Positions 1 to 11,560 of a DNA stretch of 11,560 bases are shown here, one piece after another. Within the stretch, counting starts at the first letter, position 1. Each line of letters begins with the position of its first letter. The stretch spans positions 1 through 11,560 of the IMG/VR virus record IMGVR_UViG_2693429774_000009; one strand, 5' to 3'. Under the pieces are notes generated by a model that was not told the DNA's origin, ran no database searches, and saw only the letters and a list, made by a program, of their open reading frames with translations. This DNA is from a virus. Taxonomy: Duplodnaviria > Heunggongvirae > Uroviricota > Caudoviricetes. Both the position numbers and the translations under genes were made by a program.

Positions 1-280
1 TTCAAACCACTGAAAAAGAATAGGCGTTTTTTCATCAATGACCTTTAACTCATATTCCTTTCCGGCAAAAGAAACCGTTTGACAGGGTGAACTCTGCACT
101 ATATTTGCTGAGTTATGGAAAGTTGTCCTTATCGGTGAAAGCATTCGTCGTCCTGTTTATCCATATTTTCTTCACAACTAACTCTTTAATCTATTAATTA
201 TATTGGCATACTCAACCACAAAACCTCCAGCAGTTTTGCCATCTTTGCTTTCCTAACAAACATCACCATGACATGACAAC

Positions 281-306
281 AAAAACCGGAGCCGGACTCC
301 GGTTTT
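281..306. terminator. Possible bidirectional rho-independent terminator (stem CCGGAG/CTCCGG, loop CCGGA, A-run 5' and T-run 3')
   Basis: Perfect 6-bp GC-rich inverted repeat at 286-291/297-302 flanked by AAAAA (281-285) and TTTT (303-306). Confidence 0.35.
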
Positions 307-354
307 GTGAAGCTGTCGGGTTACTTCATCCCGCCAATATTTTCCCACGTCCCG

Positions 355-561
<207 letters not shown>

Positions 562-599
562 TTATTGTGCGCTGCGGTGCGCGGTGAAATACCGGTACA

Positions 600-627
600 A
601 AAATGCCCCGCATCTGCGAGGCATTTT
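600..627 (-). terminator. Hairpin immediately downstream of the Rz stop, candidate terminator for the late transcript
   Basis: 8-bp perfect inverted repeat AAAATGCC (600-607) / GGCATTTT (620-627) with inner CGCA/TGCG pairing; lies about 40 nt past Rz stop codon on the minus strand. Confidence 0.3.
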
Positions 628-664
628 CCTGAAAGTCACTTGTTAAATTTCAGTGAAATTAAAA

Positions 665-1081
665 TTATTTTAAGCACTGCGTCCTGATGTATTCCTGCAG
701 GTAGTTAACCTGCGCGGTTATCTTGTCGATTCCACCTCGGAGACGGTAATAATTGAGTTCAGCATCTGCTGTAAGTCCTGGGCTTTCTCCATCGCCCATG
801 CTGCTGGCTCCGGTCGTTGACTTTGCACAGGTGGCGGAGACTTGCAGGCGCTTACGCCCAGCAGAAACATCAGCACGGAGACTTTCGATAGTCGCATTAG
901 CATCAGCAAGCTCCTTTGTGTATCTGGCGTCGAGTTCTGCTACATCACGTTGACGCTTCTGCATGTCAGCGATGATGGATGTGGCTTTGTCGCGCTGGTC
1001 TTTGTAGGCGATGGCGTTATCACGGTAATGATTAACAGCCCATGACAGGCAGAGGATGATGCAAATAACCAGAGCGGAGAT
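665..1081 (-). pseudogene. Rz: Rz i-spanin, 5'-truncated (no start codon; in-frame stop at 1094-1096)
   Basis: Minus-strand frame [32 protein letters not shown]...[22 protein letters not shown]... matches lambda Rz from residue about 8 onward; homology to lambda ends at about 1081 and no ATG precedes it. ORF-track entry 665..964 is the internal-Met part. Confidence 0.75.
718..909 (-). CDS. Rz1: Rz1-like o-spanin lipoprotein embedded in the +1 frame of Rz
   Basis: 63-aa [38 protein letters not shown]...: signal peptide, lipobox V-S-A-C, proline-rich mature part, fully nested inside Rz as in lambda. Confidence 0.6.
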
Positions 1082-1151
1082 AGAGGAACAGAGTTAAAAA
1101 GCCGGAAGCGGAATCAAATCACAGGATGACCATCTGCCAGTGGCAGGTCAT

Positions 1152-1178
1152 AAAAAAAAGGCTGCGCAATGCGCAGCC
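1152..1178 (-). terminator. Rho-independent terminator for minus-strand transcripts leaving the cargo cassette
   Basis: + strand AAAAAAAA (1152-1159) then GGCTGCGC (1160-1167), loop AAT, GCGCAGCC (1171-1178); on the minus strand this is an 8-bp GC stem followed by a U-run. Confidence 0.5.
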
Positions 1179-1607
1179 AGAACTCACAAGGAAAATGATA
1201 AAAGGAATAACACTAGTGATGTACGCATGGCGCCTCCCGCTAAGTTCTGCAATGATCAAACAGAACTCGCTACGTGCCCTTAAAACTCGATCATTTAGCC
1301 CCTCCAAGGAGGATTCACCATGCGGTTGATTTTTTAATAAACAGTAAACAAAAAAGTCAAGAATTATTCATTCTGTTCTTTCATCATCGGCCACAGCAAT
1401 ACCACAATGCCGCAGACCAGAGCGCCATCAGTCAGTACCAACATTATCCTGCTGGTGAAATCCATCATCACCATCACTAAAAGCAGGATCACAACAGCAA
1501 GCAGACACAGTTTATAAAACAATGTTCAGAAAACGCATTCAGCATGCCTAAGGTTCTATTCCTACGAATAGCCAACTTGCAACTTAAAATATTATTTATG
1601 CAGCCAA

Positions 1608-2366
1608 TTAAATTCTGGTCCTTACAATATCAACCTGAAGATTCTTATATTGTGCTGATTGATAAATGACAAACCTTTTACTACCTGCATTGAAAGAAGT
1701 AGACAAAACCAGACAATTATCATAACGAGCAAGAACATAATACCAACCATCATTATAATTAATCATTTCATATTCTTTCTTAAACTGTGGTTTGTAATAT
1801 CCTGTCAGAAATGAAAAAAGCCAAAAATATGCCACAAAAGCAATCATCACAATCTCAAAAAAATGTTTTTTTATAAATGGCTTATCATAGAAGCATGATA
1901 CCGATAAAAATCGCCCATAAGATCTTATCGAAATTGTAACCGCCAGCGCAATCGCTGCTGACAGTAGCAAAAGAGGTACCTGAATCTTCTGTCTCAATAT
2001 AGAAAACTCAATAATTGCCGGCACAAACAATAATTCCACAGCAAAATAAAGGCGAAATACATTTAGCTCTTGCATAGAATGTTTTCTTTTCACTGCGAAA
2101 AAGAATACAACACCAATACCCCAACCGATAAGAAATATAGCAATGACGATAACTGCAAAAAATAAACTTCTGGCAACATCATCAACACCTGCACCTACAA
2201 TCCACCATGGGAAGCCGTAGTAAAAAGAAGTACCCCATCCATAGAAATAAGCACTCCCCCATCCAAGGCATCCCATGTAGGCAATAAAAAGTGAAGAACT
2301 CCTGAGCAGCGCACCATCCTTCATAACCACCCCAATACAAGATGATAACATTGGCTTACAACTCAT
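1608..2366 (-). CDS. Hypothetical polytopic inner-membrane protein (about 5 predicted TM helices, aromatic-rich, about 55-aa soluble C-terminal tail); late-operon cargo
   Basis: 252-aa ORF, AT-rich relative to flanking phage genes; hydrophobic segments e.g. SLFFAVIVIAIFLIGWGIGVVFFFAV, VPLLLLSAAIALAVTISI, FEIVMIAFVAYFWLFSFLTGYY; located directly downstream of Q and the pR'-like promoter where lambda has S/R. Start may be the internal Met at 2324 (GGGGTGG RBS). No family recognised. Confidence 0.6.
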   Translation of the reverse strand: MSCKPMLSSCIGVVMKDGALLRSSSLFIAYMGCLGWGSAYFYGWGTSFYYGFPWWIVGAGVDDVARSLFFAVIVIAIFLIGWGIGVVFFFAVKRKHSMQELNVFRLYFAVELLFVPAIIEFSILRQKIQVPLLLLSAAIALAVTISIRSYGRFLSVSCFYDKPFIKKHFFEIVMIAFVAYFWLFSFLTGYYKPQFKKEYEMINYNDGWYYVLARYDNCLVLSTSFNAGSKRFVIYQSAQYKNLQVDIVRTRI

Positions 2367-2532
2367 AACAAAAGCAATTCAATGCCGTCAAGAGGTTACA
2401 GGCTAAAAAAACTCTATTACATAGCAGCCAGCATGTTTACCGTACAAGTACAACTCAGGGCATAAAAACTACTCGGCGGCAGGTTATTGAGACTCATCAA
2501 TGACATGTAAAAAACGCCCATTATTGGTGTCA

Positions 2533-2561
2533 AGTTTCCCCAAAGTTATTCAAAAAGTCAA
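2533..2561 (-). promoter_or_regulatory. pR'-like late promoter (Q-utilisation region) reading leftward into the cargo cassette
   Basis: Minus strand reads TTGACTTTTTGAATAACTTTGGGGAAACTTGACACC, closely resembling lambda pR' TTGACTTATTGAATAAAATTGGGTAAATTTGACTC; -35 TTGACT at 2556-2561, -10 homologue 2533-2538. Homology to lambda is lost a few tens of bp downstream. Confidence 0.45.
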
Positions 2562-2603
2562 TATTATGCCGTTAATATGTTGCCATCCGTGGCAATCATG
2601 GCG

Positions 2604-3227
2604 CTAACGTGTGATCGCATTCAAAATGTTGTCTGCGATTGACTCTTCCTTGTGGCATTGCACAACCAGAGCGTCATACAGCGGCTTAACAGTGCGTGAC
2701 CAGGTGGGTTGGGTAAGGTTTGGGATTAGCATCGTCACAGCGCGATATGCGGCGCTTGCTGGCATTCTTGAATAACCGACGCCTTTACATCTTCCGCACT
2801 CTTTCTCAGCAACTCTCCCCCACAGCTCTGTTTTGGCTATATCAACCGCACGGCCTGTACCGTGGCAATCTCTGCATCTTGCGCCCGGCGTAGCGGCACT
2901 ACGGCAATAATCCGCATAAGCGAATGTTGCGAGCACTTGCAGTACCTTTGCCTTAGTATTTCCTTCAAGCTTTGCCACGCCACGGTATTTCCCCGATACC
3001 TTGTGTGCAAATTGCATCAGATAGTTGATAGCCTTTTGTTTGTCGTTCTGGCTGAGTTCGTGCTTACCACAGAATACAGCCATTCCGAATCCGGCTTGTG
3101 ATTGCGCCATCCCCATAGCAGCCATCACATCAGTACCGGAAAGAGAGTCAGAAGCCGTGGCCCGTGGTGAGTCGCTCATCATCGGGCTTTTTGGCGAATG
3201 AAATTTAGCTATGCTTTCGAGTCTCAT
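2604..3227 (-). CDS. Q: Late-gene antiterminator Q (lambda-type, 207 aa)
   Basis: [94 protein letters not shown]... is essentially lambda Q including the Cys-rich zinc-binding region. Confidence 0.95.
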
Positions 3228-3586
3228 GCGCCTTCTCCCTGTACCTGAATCAATGTGAGGTTTCCGCAGAACACTGCGCCAGTATCGATATACATCTGGT
3301 TGGCAAATTTGAGTGGTTTCACTGCTGGCGTATGACCAAAGATGAACGTGTCCGCGCCTTTGATTTCTTTCACGATCCCGTCTTGTGAGTTGCTGATTCG
3401 TTCGCGGTTCCAGATTACCTGCTGATGATCAACTGGCTTTCCAAACTCGTATTTATCACAAGGATAGCAATCCCCCAATTTGAGGGATGTTTTATCCCTC
3501 GTTTTAGGGGATTTTCCCTCGTTTTGAGGGATACACCATTCTGAGATGTTTTTATTTGGTCCAAACATGCCGCCTTGCTGCTTGAT
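3224..3586 (-). pseudogene. In-frame deletion fusion: internal fragment of replication initiator O (ori iteron segment) joined to the C-terminal half of a lambda-type Ser/Thr protein phosphatase (orf221/PP-lambda)
   Basis: Minus-strand frame [42 protein letters not shown] (lambda O, iteron-encoded) continues directly into [78 protein letters not shown] (metallophosphatase C-terminus); ends 4 nt into Q start as in lambda. P, ren and nin genes are absent. Confidence 0.7.
3471..3532. repeat. ori-lambda iterons (three O-binding repeats; fourth iteron and the AT-rich region deleted)
   Basis: Three tandem copies of the reverse-complemented lambda iteron: TCCCCCAATTTGAGGGA (3471-3487), ATCCCTCGTTTTAGGGGAT (3494-3512), TCCCTCGTTTTGAGGGAT (3515-3532); deletion junction falls in the fourth iteron (TATCC at about 3462-3466). 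Confidence 0.8.
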
Positions 3587-3751
3587 AAGAGGGATTGGAT
3601 TCCAAAGTTCTCAATGCTGCTTGCTGTTCTTGAATGGGGTGTCGTCGACGACGACATGGCTCGATTGGCACGACAAGTTGCTTCGATTCTCACCAATAAA
3701 AAACGCCCGGCGGCAACCGAGCGTTCTGAACAAATCCAGATGGAATTCTGA
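3587..3751 (+). pseudogene. cII: cII 3' fragment (residues about 44-97) on the inverted segment
   Basis: + strand translation [54 protein letters not shown]-stop matches the lambda CII C-terminus. Confidence 0.8.
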
Positions 3752-3783
3752 GGTTATTACTGGAACTATCAACAGGAGTCATT

Positions 3784-4077
3784 ATGACAAATACAGCAAA
3801 AATACTCAACTTCGGCAGAGGTAACTTTGCCGGACAGGAGCGTAATGTGGCAGATCTCGATGATGGTTACGCCAGACTATCAAATATGCTGCTTGAGGCT
3901 TATTCAGGCGCAGATCTGACCAAGCGACAGTTTAAAGTGCTGCTTGCCATTCTGCGTAGAACCTATGGGTGGAATAAACCAATGGACAGAATCACCGATT
4001 CTCAACTTAGCGAGATTACAAAGTTACCTGTCAAACGGTGCAATGAAGCCAAGTTAGAACTCGTCAGAATGAATATT
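3784..4077 (+). pseudogene. O: O 5' fragment (N-terminal 98 codons of replication initiator O) on the inverted segment
   Basis: MTNTAKILNFGRGNFAGQERNVADLDDGYARLSNMLLEAYSGADLTKRQFKVLLAILRRTYGWNKPMDRITDSQLSEITKLPVKRCNEAKLELVRMNI matches the lambda O N-terminus with its RBS AGGAGTCATTATG; homology stops at 4077. Confidence 0.8.
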
Positions 4078-4206
4078 CCACCTGCTGATCTGCGACTTAT
4101 CAACTCCCACAGCTTCCGCTGTCTTCTCAGTTCCAAGCATTGCGATTTTGTTAAGCAACGCACTCTCGATTCGTAGAGCCTCGTTGCGTTTGTTTGCACG
4201 AACCAT
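4078..4206 (-). pseudogene. cII: cII 5' fragment (first 43 codons) with native RBS
   Basis: Minus strand ATG at 4204-4206 preceded by GGAAATACTTACAT; MVRANKRNEALRIESALLNKIAMLGTEKTAEAVGVDKSQISRW then diverges at the inversion junction and stops after 7 more codons. Confidence 0.8.
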
Positions 4207-4285
4207 ATGTAAGTATTTCCTTAGATAACAATTGATTGAATGTATGCAAATAAATGCATACACCATAGGTGTGGTTTATTTTGAT

Positions 4286-4317
4286 GCCCTTTTTCAGGGC
4301 TGGGATGTGTAAGAGCG
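4286..4317 (-). promoter_or_regulatory. nutR (boxA CGCTCTTAC and boxB GCCCTGAAAAAGGGC) between cro and cII
   Basis: + strand shows reverse complements GCCCTTTTTCAGGGC (4286-4300) and GTAAGAGCG (4309-4317), matching lambda nutR boxB and boxA. Confidence 0.6.
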
Positions 4318-4325
4318 GGAATGTC

Positions 4326-5678
<1,353 letters not shown>

Positions 5679-5728
5679 TCCCCACCTCAATCTCGATAAC
5701 AAAAAAACAAACTATTTTCCGTTTAAAA

Positions 5729-5796
5729 ACAATGGAGTTTGTTTTTCACGCCCCTTTTTACAATATCTCTTGTTTACAACATACAATCTTCCTTGT
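5729..5796. promoter_or_regulatory. Left operator OL1-OL3 (434 type) with pL reading rightward toward N
   Basis: ACAATGGAGTTTGT (5729-5742), ACAATATCTCTTGT (5760-5773), ACAATCTTCCTTGT (5783-5796), all ACAA-N6-TTGT; possible -35 TTTACA at 5773-5778. Confidence 0.7.
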
Positions 5797-5842
5797 AATT
5801 TTAAGCCATCAGCAGGACGCACTGACCACCATTGAAGGTGAG

Positions 5843-5872
5843 GCTCTTAAAAATTAAGCCCTGAAGAAGGGC
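5843..5872 (+). promoter_or_regulatory. nutL (boxA-like GCTCTTAA and boxB GCCCTGAAGAAGGGC)
   Basis: GGCTCTTAAAAATTAAGCCCTGAAGAAGGGC matches lambda nutL boxA/boxB, located in the N leader. Confidence 0.65.
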
Positions 5873-6029
5873 AGCATTCAAAGCAGAAGGCTTTGGTGTG
5901 TGTGATACGAAACGAAGCATTGGCCGGAAGTGCGAATCCGGATTAGCTGCCAATGTGCCATTGCGGGGTGTTTTCGTTCAGGACTACGACTCCCACACAC
6001 AACCAAAGCTAACTGACAGGAGAATCCAG

Positions 6030-6353
6030 ATGGATGCACAAACACGCCGCCGCGAACGTCGCGCAGAGAAACAGGCTCAATGGAAAGCAGCAAATCCCCT
6101 GTTGGTTGGGGTAAGCGCTAAACCAGTTAACCGCCCTATTCTCTCGCTGAATCGCAAACCGAAATCACGAGTAGAAAGCGCACTGAATCCGATAGACCTT
6201 ACGGTGCTGGCTGAATACCACGAACAGATTGAAAGCAACCTGCAACGTATTGAGCGCAAGAATCATCGAGTTTGGTATAGCAAGCCAGGTGAGTTCGGTA
6301 TAACTTGTCAAGGAAGACAAAAGGTTAAAGGGGAATCCATTCCATTGGCATGA
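6030..6353 (+). CDS. N: Antitermination protein N (lambda type, 107 aa)
   Basis: MDAQTRRRERRAEKQAQWKAANPLLVGVSAKPVNRPILSLNRKPKSRVESALNPIDLTVLAEYH... including the arginine-rich boxB-binding motif; ORF-track call 5898.. starts at a spurious upstream Met. Confidence 0.9.
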   Translation: MDAQTRRRERRAEKQAQWKAANPLLVGVSAKPVNRPILSLNRKPKSRVESALNPIDLTVLAEYHEQIESNLQRIERKNHRVWYSKPGEFGITCQGRQKVKGESIPLA

Positions 6354-7231
6354 GGTACGTAATGAAGAAGATTGATTACAAGTCCATACCAAAACCAATA
6401 GACTCAGCATCAGAGCGAAAAAAACACAAAAAAGAGGCTGAAAAATTAGCAAATTATATCAGTTTTATTAGAAACAATGCTCACGGCGATGGCGACAAGA
6501 AGTTGCTTTCAGATGCTCGGACCCAAGCGTTCGGTATACTTCGTAAGCAGATGCAATATCGTCTTCATCCTGGCTACATAATTGAAATTCGCCCTACTGA
6601 AAGACAATTGTTCTTATTAAACTCTGTCTTTGACTTTGTAAACGTAGTTGGAGATCTTATCGACAGGTCTGTAGATAAGGATCCTGATACAAATAGTTTT
6701 CTTCTAACAAATAAAGAATACTTATATGGTAAATTCGGTATAAACGGATGGCAAAAATATGTACGCTTCTTACGTGCATTCGTTGATGCGTATAAAAATT
6801 CCGACATGATTTATACATATTTGCCTGGTGGTGATAATTGTACGCTTTCGGCAGACAATAGAATATTCATACCTGTACTTGGTCTTGGGCTGATTAATGC
6901 AGTAAATGAAAAAGATGTTATAATTGTTAAGCAGTGGCGAAAATATGAGGGATATAGATATCTGCCATGCTTTGATATATTAAAAATACAGAATAAATTC
7001 TATGTAAAAATTAAATATAAAGAAGATATTTTCTTCCTCAGAAAAAACATAGATCTTTTACAAGAACTTTCTGGTACAATAGATGTCATCTTAGGTTCTA
7101 GGTTTATAAAAGAACTGAAAGAAAGCAGGTCTTTCTCTCGTGTAGAGATAAGCGAGTCAGAGTTATGGGGTATATCAAATAATCCTGTAAACCACGCTCA
7201 CCAACGAAACCCAAACAAAAAGTGGTCATAA
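6350..7231 (+). CDS. Hypothetical protein (293 aa; likely true start at 6362 giving 289 aa), AT-rich cargo gene replacing the lambda ral/sieB region
   Basis: Long ORF with ATG overlapping N stop (ATGA) and a second ATG at 6362 preceded by GAGG; markedly lower GC than flanking N and ea10; Lys/Ile/Asn/Tyr-rich, no TM segments, no motif recognised. Confidence 0.6.
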   Translation: MRYVMKKIDYKSIPKPIDSASERKKHKKEAEKLANYISFIRNNAHGDGDKKLLSDARTQAFGILRKQMQYRLHPGYIIEIRPTERQLFLLNSVFDFVNVVGDLIDRSVDKDPDTNSFLLTNKEYLYGKFGINGWQKYVRFLRAFVDAYKNSDMIYTYLPGGDNCTLSADNRIFIPVLGLGLINAVNEKDVIIVKQWRKYEGYRYLPCFDILKIQNKFYVKIKYKEDIFFLRKNIDLLQELSGTIDVILGSRFIKELKESRSFSRVEISESELWGISNNPVNHAHQRNPNKKWS

Positions 7232-7373
7232 CCCGCTCAGGCGGATTTCATTTTCACGCAAACAACAGAATAAACACAGCGCTGTGTATTCATTCCAACG
7301 AGTGAATACACGGAGCAATGTCGCTCGTAACTAAACAGGAGCCGACTTGTTCTGATTATTGGAAATCTTCTTT

Positions 7374-7400
7374 GCCCTCCAAGATGAGGGCGATTTTTTA
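7374..7400 (+). terminator. Putative rho-independent terminator between the cargo ORF and ea10
   Basis: GCCCTC (7374-7379) loop CAAGAT, GAGGGC (7386-7391) followed by GATTTTTTA. Confidence 0.35.
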
Positions 7401-7419
7401 TCTGTGAGGATATGAACAG

Positions 7420-7788
7420 ATGTCAAACATCAAAAAATACATCATTGATTACGACTGGAAAGCATCAATAGAAATTGAAATCGACCATGACGTAATGACA
7501 GAGGAAAAACTTCACCAGATTAATAATTTCTGGTCAGACTCTGAATACCGACTCAATAAACACGGCTCTGTATTAAATGCTGTATTAATCATGCTGGCGC
7601 AACATGCTCTGCTTATAGCAATTTCAAGCGACTTAAATGCATATGGTGTTGTGTGTGAGTTCGACTGGAATGATGGAAATGGTCAGGAAGGATGGCCTCC
7701 AATGGATGGTAGTGAAGGAATAAGAATTACCGATATCGATACATCAGGAATATTTGATTCAGATGATATGACTATCAAGGCCGCCTGA
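7420..7788 (+). CDS. ea10: Ea10-like protein (lambda early gene, 122 aa)
   Basis: MSNIKKYIIDYDWKASIEIEIDHDVMTEEKLHQINNFWSDSEYRLNKHGS... recalled as lambda Ea10; position upstream of cIII matches lambda. Confidence 0.8.
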   Translation: MSNIKKYIIDYDWKASIEIEIDHDVMTEEKLHQINNFWSDSEYRLNKHGSVLNAVLIMLAQHALLIAISSDLNAYGVVCEFDWNDGNGQEGWPPMDGSEGIRITDIDTSGIFDSDDMTIKAA

Positions 7789-7860
7789 GCGCGGCGTTAC
7801 CGCATACCAATTACGCTTCACTCGAGGCGTTTTTCGTTATGTATAAATAAGGAGCACACC

Positions 7861-8025
7861 ATGCAATATGCCATTGCAGGGTGGCCTGTTGCTGGCTGCC
7901 CTTCCGAATCTTTACTTGAACGAATCACCCGTAAATTACGTGACGGATGGAAACGCCTTATCGACATACTTAATCAGCCAGGAGTCCCAAAAAATGGATC
8001 AAACAATTATGGCTATCCAGACTAA
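7861..8025 (+). CDS. cIII: CIII, FtsH inhibitor stabilising CII (54 aa; below ORF-track size cutoff)
   Basis: ATG at 7861 after AAGGAG; translation [54 protein letters not shown]-stop matches lambda CIII. Confidence 0.85.
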   Translation: MQYAIAGWPVAGCPSESLLERITRKLRDGWKRLIDILNQPGVPKNGSNNYGYPD

Positions 8026-8137
8026 ATTCACTATCGCCACTTTTATTGGCGATGAAAAGATGTTTCGTGAGGCCGTCGACGCTTATAAAAAATGGATATT
8101 AATACTGAAACTGAGATCAAGCAAAAGCATTCACTAA
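7994..8137 (+). CDS. kil: Kil (host killing / FtsZ inhibitor, 47 aa)
   Basis: Internal Met of ORF 7868..8137: [47 protein letters not shown] matches lambda Kil; overlaps cIII 3' end as in lambda. Confidence 0.8.
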
Positions 8138-8508
8138 CCCCCTTTCCTGTTTTCCTAATCAGCCCGGCATTTCGCGGGCGATATTTTCACAGCTATTTCA
8201 GGAGTTCGGCCATGAACGCTTATTACATTCAGGATCGTCTTGAGGCTCAGAGCTGGGCGCGTCACTACCAGCAGATAGCCCGTGAAGAGAAAGAGGCAGA
8301 ACTGGCAGACGACATGGAAAAAGGCCTGCCCCAGCACCTGTTTGAATCGCTATGCATCGGTCATTTGCAACGCCACGGGGCCAGCAAAAAAGCCATTACC
8401 CGTGCGTTTGATGACGATGTTGAGTTTCAGGAGCGCATGGCAGAACACATCCGGTACATGGTTGAAACCATTGCTCACCATCAGGTTGATATTGATTCAG
8501 AGGTATAA
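8092..8508 (+). CDS. gam: Gam, RecBCD inhibitor (138-aa long form; short form would start at 8212)
   Basis: ...[60 protein letters not shown]...[10 protein letters not shown] matches lambda Gam. Confidence 0.9.
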
Positions 8509-8513
8509 AACGG

Positions 8514-9299
8514 ATGAGTACAGCACTCGCAACGCTGGCAGGGAAGCTGGCTGAACGTGTCGGCATGGATTCTGTCGACCCACAGGAACTGATCACCACT
8601 CTTCGCCAGACGGCATTTAAAGGCGATGCCAGCGATGCGCAGTTCATCGCATTGTTGATCGTCGCCAACCAGTACGGCCTTAATCCGTGGACGAAAGAAA
8701 TTTACGCCTTCCCTGATAAGCAGAACGGCATCGTTCCGGTGGTGGGCGTTGATGGCTGGTCCCGCATCATCAATGAAAACCAGCAGTTTGATGGCATGGA
8801 CTTTGAGCAGGACAATGAATCCTGTACATGCCGGATTTACCGCAAGGACCGTAATCATCCGATCTGCGTTACCGAATGGATGGATGAATGCCGCCGCGAA
8901 CCATTCAAAACCCGCGAAGGCAGAGAAATCACGGGGCCGTGGCAGTCGCATCCTAAACGGATGTTACGGCATAAAGCTATGATTCAGTGTGCCCGTCTGG
9001 CCTTCGGATTTGCTGGTATCTATGACAAGGATGAAGCCGAGCGCATTGTCGAAAATACTGCATACACTGCAGAACGCCAGCCGGAACGCGACATCACTCC
9101 GGTTAACGATGAAACCATGCAGGAGATTAACACTCTGCTAATCGCCCTGGATAAAACATGGGATGACGACTTATTGCCGCTCTGTTCCCAGATATTTCGC
9201 CGCGACATTCGCGCATCGTCAGAACTGACACAGGCCGAAGCAGTGAAAGCTCTTGGATTCCTGAAACAGAAAGCCACTGAGCAGAAGGTGGCAGCATGA
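8514..9299 (+). CDS. bet: Bet (Red-beta single-strand annealing protein, 261 aa)
   Basis: [72 protein letters not shown]... matches lambda Bet. Confidence 0.95.
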
Positions 9300-9976
9300 C
9301 ACCGGACATTATCCTGCAGCGTACCGGGATCGACGTGAGAGCTGTCGAACAGGGGGATGATGCGTGGCACAAATTACGGCTCGGCGTCATCACAGCTTCA
9401 GAAGTTCATAACGTAATAGCAAAACCCCGCTCCGGAAAAAAGTGGCCTGACATGAAAATGTCCTACTTCCACACCCTGCTTGCTGAGGTTTGCACCGGTG
9501 TGGCTCCGGAAGTTAACGCTAAAGCGCTGGCCTGGGGAAAACAGTACGAGAACGACGCCAGAGCCCTGTTTGAGTTCACTTCCGGCGTGAATGTTACTGA
9601 ATCACCGATCATCTATCGCGACGAAAGTATGCGTACCGCCTGCTCTCCAGATGGTTTATGCAGTGACGGCAACGGCCTTGAACTGAAATGCCCGTTTACC
9701 TCCCGGGATTTCATGAAGTTCCGGCTCGGTGGTTTCGAGGCCATAAAGTCAGCTTACATGGCCCAGGTGCAGTACAGCATGTGGGTGACGCGAAAAGATG
9801 CCTGGTACTTTGCCAACTATGACCCGCGTATGAAGCGTGAAGGACTGCATTATGTCGTGGTTGAGCGGGATGAAAAGTACATGGCGGGTTTTGACGAGAT
9901 GGTGCCGGAGTTCATCGAAAAAATGGACGAGGCACTGGCTGAAATTGGTTTTGTATTTGGGGAGCAATGGCGATGA
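9296..9976 (+). CDS. exo: Lambda exonuclease (Red-alpha, 226 aa)
   Basis: [65 protein letters not shown]... matches lambda Exo with a few substitutions; 4-nt overlap with bet. Confidence 0.95.
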
Positions 9977-10155
9977 AGCATCCTCACGATAATATCCGGG
10001 TAGGTGCGATCACTTTCGTCTACTCCGTTACAAAGCGAGGCTGGGTATTTCCCGACCTTTCTGTTATCCAAAATCCACTGAAAGCCCAGCGGCTGGCTGA
10101 GGAGATAAATAATAAACGAGGGGCTGTATGCACAAAGCATCTCCTGTTGAGTTAA
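9967..10155 (+). CDS. Small hypothetical protein, lambda orf60a-like (62 aa)
   Basis: ORF overlapping exo stop (ATG...TGA coupling), [62 protein letters not shown]; recalled as the small ORF following exo in lambda, identity not verified. Confidence 0.55.
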
Positions 10156-10242
10156 GAACGAGCATTGAGATGGCACATATGGGCGCAGATAGCACATGCA
10201 GACGTAACCAATATTCGAATTGAAGAACTGAAAGAACACCAA

Positions 10243-10262
10243 GCCGCCTGATGGCGGTTTTT
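10243..10262 (+). terminator. Putative rho-independent terminator upstream of xis
   Basis: CCGCC (10243-10247) loop TGAT, GGCGG (10252-10256) followed by TTTTTT. Confidence 0.4.
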
Positions 10263-10290
10263 TCTTGCGTGTAATTGCGGAGACTTTGCG

Positions 10291-10509
10291 ATGTACTTGA
10301 CACTTCAGGAGTGGAACGCACGCCAGCGACGCCCAAGAAGCCTTGAAACAGTTCGTCGATGGGTACGCGAGTGCAGGATATTCCCTCCTCCGGTTAAGGA
10401 TGGAAGAGAGTATCTGTTCCACGAATCAGCGGTAAAGGTTGACTTAAATCGACCAGTAACAGGTAGCCTTTTGAAGAGGATCAGAAATGGGAAGAAGGCG
10501 AAGTCATGA
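10291..10509 (+). CDS. xis: Excisionase Xis (72 aa)
   Basis: MYLTLQEWNARQRRPRSLETVRRWVRECRIFPPPVKDGREYLFHESAVKVDLNRPVTGSLLKRIRNGKKAKS matches lambda Xis; 23-nt overlap with int as in lambda. Confidence 0.93.
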   Translation: MYLTLQEWNARQRRPRSLETVRRWVRECRIFPPPVKDGREYLFHESAVKVDLNRPVTGSLLKRIRNGKKAKS

Positions 10510-11560
10510 GCGCCGGGATTTACCCCCTAACCTTTATATAAGAAACAATGGATATTACTGCTACAGGGACCCAAGGACGGGTAAAGAGTTTGGATTAGGC
10601 CGAGACAGGAGGATAGCAATCACTGAAGCAATACAGGCCAATATTGAGTTACTCTCAGACAGCGGACGCAAATCACTGATAGACAGAATTAAAGGCGGTG
10701 ACGCAATCACTCTTCATGTGTGGCTTGACCGATATGAAACAATCCTCACCGAAAGGGGGATCAGGCCGAAAACTCTACTCGACTACGCCAGCAAAATCAG
10801 GGCAATCCGAAGAAAATTGCCGGACAAACCGCTCACTGACATATCAACGAAAGAAGTGGCAGCAATGCTAAACACCTACGTAGCAGAAGGTAAAGCAGCT
10901 TCCGCAAAATTAATCAGGTCAACCCTTGTTGACGTTTTTCGTGAAGCAATAGCCGAGGGGCATGTGGCAACGAATCCGGTAACAGCAACCCGTACAGCAA
11001 AGTCAGAAGTAAGGCGCTCAAGGCTGACAGCTAATGAGTATGTCGAGATTTACCATGCAGCCGAACCTCTCCCTATCTGGCTAAGGCTGGCGATGGATTT
11101 GGCCGTCGTTACAGGGCAGAGAGTCGGCGATTTGTGCAGAATGAAATGGTCAGACATAAACGACAACCATCTTCACATTAAACAGAGTAAAACAGGGGCT
11201 AAACTCGCCATTCCGCTAACGCTAACGATTGACGCGCTCAATATCTCATTGGCTGATACACTACAGAAATGCAGGGAGGCCAGCAGCAGTGAAACTATAA
11301 TCGCATCAAAGCATCACGATCCGCTTTCCCCGAAAACAGTATCAAAGTATTTTACAAAGGCGAGAAATGCATCTGGCCTCTCATTTGATGGAAACCCGCC
11401 AACATTCCATGAACTGCGTAGCCTGTCAGCGAGGCTATACCGGAACCAGATTGGCGATAAGTTTGCTCAACGTCTTCTCGGGCATAAATCAGATTCAATG
11501 GCGGCGCGGTATAGGGACAGCCGTGGACGGGAATGGGACAAAATTGAAATCGACAAATGA
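10487..11560 (+). CDS. int: Tyrosine integrase Int (357 aa), lambda-family; stop codon is the last triplet of the window
   Basis: MGRRRSHERRDLPPNLYIRNNGYYCYRDPRTGKEFGLGRDRRIAITEAIQANIELL... N-terminal arm-binding domain identical to lambda Int; catalytic motifs (R...HELRSL...LLGH...Y) present; central region diverged from lambda Int. Confidence 0.95.
   Translation: MGRRRSHERRDLPPNLYIRNNGYYCYRDPRTGKEFGLGRDRRIAITEAIQANIELLSDSGRKSLIDRIKGGDAITLHVWLDRYETILTERGIRPKTLLDYASKIRAIRRKLPDKPLTDISTKEVAAMLNTYVAEGKAASAKLIRSTLVDVFREAIAEGHVATNPVTATRTAKSEVRRSRLTANEYVEIYHAAEPLPIWLRLAMDLAVVTGQRVGDLCRMKWSDINDNHLHIKQSKTGAKLAIPLTLTIDALNISLADTLQKCREASSSETIIASKHHDPLSPKTVSKYFTKARNASGLSFDGNPPTFHELRSLSARLYRNQIGDKFAQRLLGHKSDSMAARYRDSRGREWDKIEIDK

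Follow-up and report, generated by a model that had tools for sequence, protein, structure and literature searches.

The window, by which we mean the whole 11,560-nucleotide stretch analysed here (positions 1 to 11,560 of IMG/VR record IMGVR_UViG_2693429774_000009), is an imm434 lambdoid prophage whose early-left operon lies on the + strand. Between N and ea10 of that operon there is a + strand open reading frame (ORF) at 6350-7231, 293 aa long from its first ATG, whose product we refer to as long Nun. Its protein very probably has a two-part anatomy, in which a body resembling the WED and REC domains of TnpB, with no nuclease, is followed by the arrest tail of the HK022 protein Nun.

DNA homology to lambda is lost after 6286 and regained at 7260; across this gap (window 6287-7259) lambda carries the end of N followed by sieB, orf28 and ral. 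Since the homology ends before the N stop codon, the replaced module begins within N and not at its termination codon; the last ~22 codons of N (6287-6353) diverge from lambda N at the DNA level. The N stop overlaps the first ATG of the ORF (ATGA), and a second ATG with a GAGG ahead of it lies at 6362, an arrangement which, to judge from the nucleotides, implies translational coupling to N. The 6362 start and its 289-aa product are preferred because all homologues, the PHROG profile and the GenBank annotation of phage 434 begin there, and they are supported by locus L005, in which the homologous gene starts 8 nt after N. The GC content of the ORF is 34.6% (30% at third codon positions), compared with 48.8% in N, 38.5% in ea10 and 45.1% in the whole window. 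The ORF is not a chance frame, because it has full-length homologues at 68, 47, 42 and 37% identity and the ratio of non-synonymous to synonymous substitution rates (dN/dS) relative to a 97.6%-identical allele is 0.29. ORFs on the - strand within the interval reach 95 aa; they were set aside in favour of the + strand ORF, which is under purifying selection and is conserved at full length in distant homologues.

An earlier note on this DNA, made from its letters alone, had described the ORF and its ATGA overlap with N, the alternative ATG with its GAGG (here the better-supported start), the GC content well below that of the neighbours, the replacement of the lambda ral/sieB interval, transcription with N from pL, and a terminator-like hairpin downstream. 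These observations are borne out, the gene being co-oriented with N, coupled to it and downstream of pL. It had also described the gene as fused onto the end of N, which does not hold, as the gene is coupled to N and not fused.

Nun is the textbook phage exclusion factor, which wedges RNA polymerase and is aimed by an arginine-rich peptide on boxB RNA. The last 14 residues of long Nun, VNHAHQRNPNKKWS, are identical at 14/14 positions to residues 96-109 of HK022 Nun (PDB 6ALG chain N), including every contact residue from N97 to S109, and PHROG 5632, to which Nun belongs, matches aa 274-293 (in the 293-aa numbering) with E=7e-5; the earlier note had missed this identity. Only residues 87-109 are ordered in the structure of Nun with polymerase, and all of the known arrest determinants are there (PMC5386594). 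The contacts are made by N97, H98, H100, R102, K106, K107, W108 and S109, with N103 dispensable; N97, H98 and H100 touch the rudder, RNA and template strand, R102 pairs with the C-terminal carboxylate, and K106, K107 and W108 occupy a pocket between the hybrid and the downstream DNA; an R94A substitution mainly weakens Nun binding (PMC5386594).

The tail is maintained throughout the phage members of the family (group A). All of them retain its V, N, H, A, H, R, K, K and W and vary only at the equivalents of Q101, N103, P104 and N105, a pattern that fits the functional map of Nun. In homologues that are just 37-47% identical, codons have changed synonymously and still encode N97, H98, H100, R102, K106, K107 and W108 (Nun numbering), and comparison of the tail codons of the window and locus L003 reveals eight synonymous and three non-synonymous changes, with unrelated DNA downstream. 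Because these residues are kept across group A and the codon differences are mostly synonymous, the tail is selected and not a recent accident. The DNA is also 94% identical to the 3' end of HK75 nun, with the identity beginning abruptly at the first tail codon (7186) and running to the tL2a terminator at 7401; on this alignment the boundary is a mosaic joint within the reading frame.

Upstream of the tail no similarity to Nun was detected, and local alignments of the Nun body with the family body score no better than shuffled sequences. The same is true of two candidate likenesses that we rejected, FPRDVEKIEDE / FSRVEISESE just upstream of the tail and the Nun-like spacing of a lysine-rich stretch, SERKKHKKEAEKLANY, in the N-terminal extension, neither of which is conserved. 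That stretch is not maintained as an arginine-rich motif among the homologues, and the arginine-rich boxB-binding motif of Nun is absent from the protein; its basic stretch (aa 17-32) is rich in lysine, and the model places it in a helix that packs against the rest of the fold. The three residues that precede VNHAH also differ, conforming to [HNFY][RK]V in the short Nun-like proteins and being NNP, NSP, DKA, GQA, VSI or GSP in the long family.

The body was modelled with AlphaFold2 from 13 family sequences; a version with four sequences was unusable, with a confidence score (pLDDT) of 43. The 13-sequence model has a pLDDT of 80-93 for aa 10-220 and below 50 for aa 222-289, and consists of helices at 16-38 and 43-65, a strand at 72-77, a helical bundle at 80-145, and strands with one helix at 152-218. 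Foldseek searches with this model recover a TnpB-like fold from both PDB and BFVD. In hhalign comparisons with an alignment of five real TnpBs fetched from plasmids, the family is collinear with TnpB residues 1-173, and the match runs out just short of RuvC-I and its GxDxG motif. Local alignment scores 25.2 compared with 13.3+/-2.2 (maximum 19.1) for column-shuffled alignments, and global alignment scores 19.7 compared with 3.0+/-2.7 (maximum 12.3). Three motif pairs are aligned: LIELxPxxRQ with rlyPxxxQ, IYIPxLGL with IKLPKLG, and KFYVKI with GKYYxS.

The RuvC domain with its D-E-D triad is absent, the ~70 residues that follow the WED strands being modelled as one low-confidence helix and disorder, and the zinc-finger/TNB region is absent too: C160 and C203 are the sole cysteines, and CxxC does not occur. 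Since the alignment ends before RuvC-I, a helix and disorder follow, and there is no CxxC, the body is best described as WED plus REC with neither nuclease nor zinc finger. The most conserved stretch outside the tail is the motif ESRSFSRVEISES (aa 254-266, nt 7121-7159), which lies in the linker in a region modelled as disordered. Its counterpart in the plasmid relatives (group B) is SKSYSRVDF, despite an overall identity of ~22%. Coordinates of these parts and of neighbouring elements are listed in Table 1.

Table 1. Features of the long Nun gene, its product and the surrounding early-left operon, in window coordinates.
Feature	Position	Strand	Basis
Gene order: cI434 (4645-5277), hex, oL/pL, nutL, N, long Nun ORF, terminator, ea10, cIII, kil, gam, bet, exo, xis, int		+
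nutL boxB hairpin GCCCTGAAGAAGGGC, lambda type	5858..5872	+	Sequence and hairpin scan; nutL annotated at matching place in phage 434
N, lambda-type antiterminator gene, 107 aa	6030..6353	+	PHROG 271 N-like; annotated N in phage 434
GAGG Shine-Dalgarno (6352-6355) and preferred ATG (6362-6364)	6352..6364	+	ATG six bases after GAGG; homologues, PHROG profile, GenBank
Complete long Nun coding sequence (289 aa) with stop	6362..7231	+	ORF list, phage 434 annotation, homologues, dN/dS
N-terminal extension, aa 1-68, predicted basic two-helix hairpin, net charge +9; phage (group A) members only	6362..6565	+	AlphaFold2 helices 16-38 and 43-65; alignments
Core, aa ~69-220, TnpB/Cas12-type WED beta-barrel with inserted helical REC (predicted)	6566..7021	+
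Linker, aa 221-275, low-confidence helix then disorder	7022..7186	+	pLDDT below 50 for aa 222-289
Nun-type RNA-polymerase arrest peptide VNHAHQRNPNKKWS (aa 276-289) and stop	7187..7231	+	Identical to 6alg_N 96-109; PHROG 5632; HK75 nun DNA match
Short hairpin CCGC-TCAG-GCGG and T-rich run ATTTCATTTT, immediately 3' of the long Nun stop	7232..7259	+	Common to HK75 nun (alignment)
Intrinsic terminator, lambda tL2a homologue, closing the interval before ea10	7372..7400	+	Stem 7372-7393 then T-run; annotated terminator in phage 434, tL2a in phage O276

The gene is already present in sequence catalogues, with little description. It is 99.9% identical to CPT_434_48 of phage 434, whose product GenBank lists simply as "Nun C-terminal peptide-containing protein", and the genome announcement of phage 434 does not mention it. 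Of 5426 complete E. coli genomes, 83 (~1.5%) contain the gene at full length, always adjoining N, and RefSeq names it "hypothetical protein" there. PHROG 12139 (unknown function) covers the protein end to end and, apart from the match of the tail to PHROG 5632, is its only PHROG match; searches of the full protein against Pfam, NCBIfam and PADLOC gave no match (PADLOC 0 at E<=10), and a PDB sequence search with the family profile returned noise only. The earlier note's description of the protein as unrecognised is thus correct for Pfam, NCBIfam and PADLOC, but not for PHROG or GenBank. The profile and structure searches did not produce a match to a ral/sieB-region protein, and yielded instead PHROG 12139, the PHROG 5632 tail and the TnpB-like fold. 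Lambda imm434 lacks the gene, which probably explains why classical genetics never met it, and a search of open-access PMC and bioRxiv found no paper linking Nun to TnpB or analysing this 434 gene.

The family is tiny, even in an exhaustive search of 5.8 billion proteins, and falls into two groups. Group A proteins (288-301 aa) are encoded in phages, and include the members with 68, 47, 42 and 37% identity to the window protein. The long form lies directly after N genes of four arginine-rich motif (ARM) types, in the window/L025, L005, L105, L058 and L039. In L003/L130 it directly follows cI, pL and putL with no N gene, which is the exact place of nun in HK022 and HK75. We note that L003 is an HK022-like phage with a putL (2935-3005) nearly identical to that of HK75, and that nun has given way there to a long form of 290 aa that shares 42% identity with the window protein. 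The fixed place right behind N or putL in six divergent phages suggests that the gene belongs to the early-left operon.

The Nun tail itself extends beyond the long family. A scan of IMG/VR for the tail codon pattern identified more than 119 loci with two architectures, one being the TnpB-like family of 289-301 aa and the other consisting of proteins of 83-123 aa with very diverse arginine-rich N-termini, some of them almost identical to the lambda N ARM. In L046, L047, L097, L109, L110 and L081, 88-aa proteins with a near-lambda-N ARM (MDAQARRREKRKEKQEEWK...) end in the Nun tail, and from their sequences these look like N/Nun chimeras. In L081 the tail occurs in two different genes, of 88 and 102 aa, separated by about 300 bp, and many other ARM types, including P22- and phi21-like ones, also bear the tail.

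Group B (213-315 aa; L006-L010, L139:5824-6768 and L140:5911-6693) has only the core in common with group A, at 20-26% identity. Its members lack the first 70 residues and the Nun tail; they share the RuvC-less WED/REC core and S(K)xY(A/S)RVDF, and their tail is ...GxxVQGGLPSLGKRRR, the general form of the end being ...S(K/Q)xY(A/S)RVDF...GxxVxGGxxxxGK(K/R)R. This group B tail (..QGGLPSLGKRRR) has no sequence match in PDB. Small plasmids of the ColE2 type carry these genes, as do conjugative plasmids of Burkholderia, in which they lie amid runs of small unknown genes.

The relationships to known systems are partial in each case. Long Nun shares with HK022 Nun the tail, a disordered linker ahead of it, the place at the promoter-proximal end of the pL operon and the 3' flanking DNA, and its linker of ~55 residues is similar to the ARM-to-tail distance of ~45 in Nun. 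However, Nun is 109-112 aa compared with 289 aa, long Nun has neither the boxB-binding ARM nor any detected similarity outside the tail, it has a folded TnpB-like domain of 150 residues and a helical hairpin, and in most phages it coexists with N instead of replacing it. With TnpB, Cas12f and Fanzor (ISDra2 TnpB, PDB 8H1J/8BF8) it shares the WED beta-barrel with inserted REC, collinear with TnpB ~1-173, together with (Y/L)xhxLxPxxxQ at the first strand, IxLPKLG / IYIPxLGL and GKYYxS / NKFYVKI. It differs in lacking RuvC, the DED triad, the zinc-finger/TNB, a transposon context and an omega-RNA locus, and the sequence relationship is too weak for hidden Markov model searches of Pfam, NCBIfam and PDB. 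No guide (omega/re) RNA was found near the gene, Rfam at a permissive E-value giving only the cIII thermoregulator and sub-threshold noise, and there are no insertion sequence (IS) ends or tnpA, the flanks being ordinary lambdoid genes. Since the ARM, counterparts of Nun residues 87-95, RuvC, the zinc finger and a guide-RNA locus are all absent, long Nun is a member of neither the Nun nor the TnpB family in the strict sense.

The nearest precedents for exaptation of TnpB into transcription control are TldR and dCas12f-sigmaE. TnpB derivatives that are nuclease-dead and C-terminally truncated, some of them phage-encoded, act as RNA-guided repressors (PMC10705468), and some TldR and dCas12f-sigmaE proteins are borne by temperate phages (PMC10705468; PMC12259090). 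TldR retains a nearly complete TnpB fold in which the RuvC active site has decayed (PMC10705468). TldR and dCas12f-sigmaE proteins keep most of the RuvC scaffold and use a guide RNA for steric block or sigma recruitment, whereas long Nun has only WED and REC with a polymerase-inserting peptide and no evident guide RNA. Lambda SieB and Ral are alike only in occupying the interval between N and ea10 as accessory genes of phage-phage or host-defence conflict; they have no sequence or structural similarity to long Nun, sieB is on the opposite strand, and the mechanisms are unrelated.

Among the neighbouring elements, the lambda-type boxB hairpin at nutL indicates that the prophage's own early-left transcript would be N/nut-modified. 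The pL operon is 99.4% identical to that of phage 434, and a scan of 5526-6810 on the + strand found no promoter-like site between pL and the long Nun gene, the total number of promoter-like matches being at chance level. L003 and L005 have a strong terminator at the place of the short hairpin that follows the long Nun stop, abutting the stop codon of the long form, and the non-coding DNA at 7260-7400 is generic to lambdoid phages, whichever gene precedes it.

Elsewhere in the window, at 3462-4176, an inversion of 491 bp relative to phage 434 (3587-4077) splits cII, so that the 3' end of cII lies on the + strand together with codons 1-98 of O. In addition, a deletion fuses O (near aa 105-151) to sequence for the C-terminal part of ninI (ORF 3224-3568, - strand), and these rearrangements leave the prophage replication-defective. 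Flanked by Q (2604-3227) and an Rz fragment (665-964) is a 252-aa ORF (1608-2366, - strand, 36% GC) that apparently encodes a multi-pass membrane protein. Its PHROG match is 1521 (unknown function) and Pfam gives none; it is a second compositionally foreign accessory gene in the window. Rfam identifies the lambda cIII thermoregulator RNA at 7848-7906 (88.5 bits), and a match to the sRNA STnc100 at 1149-1353 on the - strand is below threshold (41.4 bits compared with a cut-off of 47).

On balance, we think it somewhat probable that long Nun is a two-part targeted transcription-arrest factor, in which the TnpB-derived module delivers the arrest peptide. A plausible scenario is that this module takes over the targeting role of the boxB-binding ARM of Nun, and recognizes some nucleic-acid feature, either a structure in the nascent RNA or the duplex DNA just upstream of polymerase. 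The local concentration of the tail would thereby be raised at particular elongation complexes, and the tail would enter the polymerase cleft and block translocation, such that polymerase stalls. If entry is between the beta' zipper and the upstream duplex, as for Nun, WED/REC would come to lie where the duplex DNA emerges and next to the RNA exit. In the published structures of TnpB, WED and REC read the duplex of the target-adjacent motif (TAM), and a similar reading of duplex DNA may compensate for the missing H93/R94 contacts. Complexes of the phage itself, modified by N or put, would be spared, and those of competitor phages or the host arrested. Lambda N traverses the hybrid cavity of polymerase (PMC9378689); from this one may speculate that N-modified complexes could be immune, and that a phage could co-express N and an arrest factor.

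On this analysis long Nun would most likely serve to exclude co-infecting or superinfecting phages, as Nun does. The earlier note had proposed an anti-phage moron in this position, and the exclusion-type part of that guess gains support from the C-terminal arrest peptide, which is shared with the known superinfection-exclusion factor Nun and is under purifying selection. The status of a moron with its own promoter does not, given the lack of a promoter-like site between pL and the gene, and nothing speaks for a toxin mechanism or for the abortive infection that was also suggested, with no match in PADLOC, Pfam or NCBIfam.

Several points weigh against arrest-based exclusion by a two-part protein. 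The structural model depends on an alignment of 13 sequences, the Foldseek E-values are only 0.01-0.06, and root-mean-square deviations from TnpB are large (4-7 A). Homology of the tail begins at V96, and H93/R94 and the rest of Nun residues 87-95, which contact the beta' zipper and upstream DNA, have no counterpart. The plasmid relatives of group B have a different tail, so that the body may originally have had a function unconnected with RNA polymerase. Nor did the scan find a promoter from which a lysogen would express the gene; exclusion from the prophage state, as in HK022, is therefore not supported. Phage 434 itself bears lambda-type nut sites and 434 lysogens are not known to exclude lambda, so the target cannot be lambda boxB; no target motif was identified in RNA or DNA. 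Arrest itself is inferred, and so are the target and the phenotype.

The same molecule could perform another job, arresting host transcription early in lytic growth or tuning the phage's own pL and pR, with N- or put-modified complexes protected. This is possible, although we consider it improbable. It would account for a gene that is always co-transcribed and translationally coupled with N, or first after putL, with no separate promoter detected, and it is in keeping with the location of N in the hybrid cavity and with the capacity of Nun at high concentration to arrest any elongation complex (PMC5386594). However, the gene is dispensable, being absent from lambda, lambda imm434 and most lambdoid phages and carried by just the 83 of 5426 E. 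coli genomes noted above; the slot holds accessory exclusion and anti-restriction genes in lambda, and Nun, the nearest functional precedent, is an exclusion factor. A more elaborate version of targeted arrest, in which WED/REC is a programmable or sequence-reading device that uses a guide RNA supplied in trans, or a TAM-like motif on the duplex behind polymerase, to deliver the polymerase-jamming peptide while its own phage escapes through N or put at the polymerase cleft, is unlikely.

It is quite unlikely that long Nun is an RNA-guided factor in the manner of TldR or dCas12f, with a small guide RNA pairing with DNA and the Nun tail stalling polymerase there. The fold does belong to the RNA-guided TnpB/Cas12 superfamily, and the truncated nuclease-dead repressors are a precedent (PMC10705468), but the terminators of L003 and L005 are within ~10 nt of the stop and leave no room for a guide-RNA gene, Rfam has nothing relevant, 7260-7400 is generic to lambdoid phages, and IS ends and tnpA are absent. 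Moreover, the entire RuvC/TNB half is missing, which in TnpB helps to hold the omega-RNA scaffold. We regard as very unlikely the further alternative that mosaic recombination at the nun/tL2 junction left the tail behind as a by-product and that only the TnpB-like body is active, for example as a guide-RNA decoy, nuclease blocker or DNA-binding regulator. The abrupt start of HK75 identity at the first tail codon and its continuation for 170 nt past the stop constitute a classic mosaic joint, and group B has the body without the Nun tail. However, the tail is kept in homologues that are 37-47% identical, with synonymous divergence and different DNA downstream, and its constant and variable positions match the functional map of Nun.

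In the light of this gene, the arrest peptide of Nun looks like a portable module. Targeting of Nun has so far been known in one form, through an arginine-rich peptide on boxB RNA, and here the tail is joined to the domesticated half of a TnpB/Cas12 enzyme. If the targeted-arrest interpretation is correct, a radically truncated, RuvC-less branch would be added to the known exaptations of TnpB, and the protein would represent a natural design for a targeted transcription roadblock; it also raises the question of how an N-dependent phage shields its own polymerase from its own arrest factor. Should the body prove to be a targeting device of the programmable or sequence-reading kind, long Nun would be a natural fusion of a targeting domain with an effector peptide, and a new mechanistic class both of TnpB exaptation and of phage-phage or host shut-off warfare, in which phages graft the Nun arrest peptide onto unrelated targeting domains.

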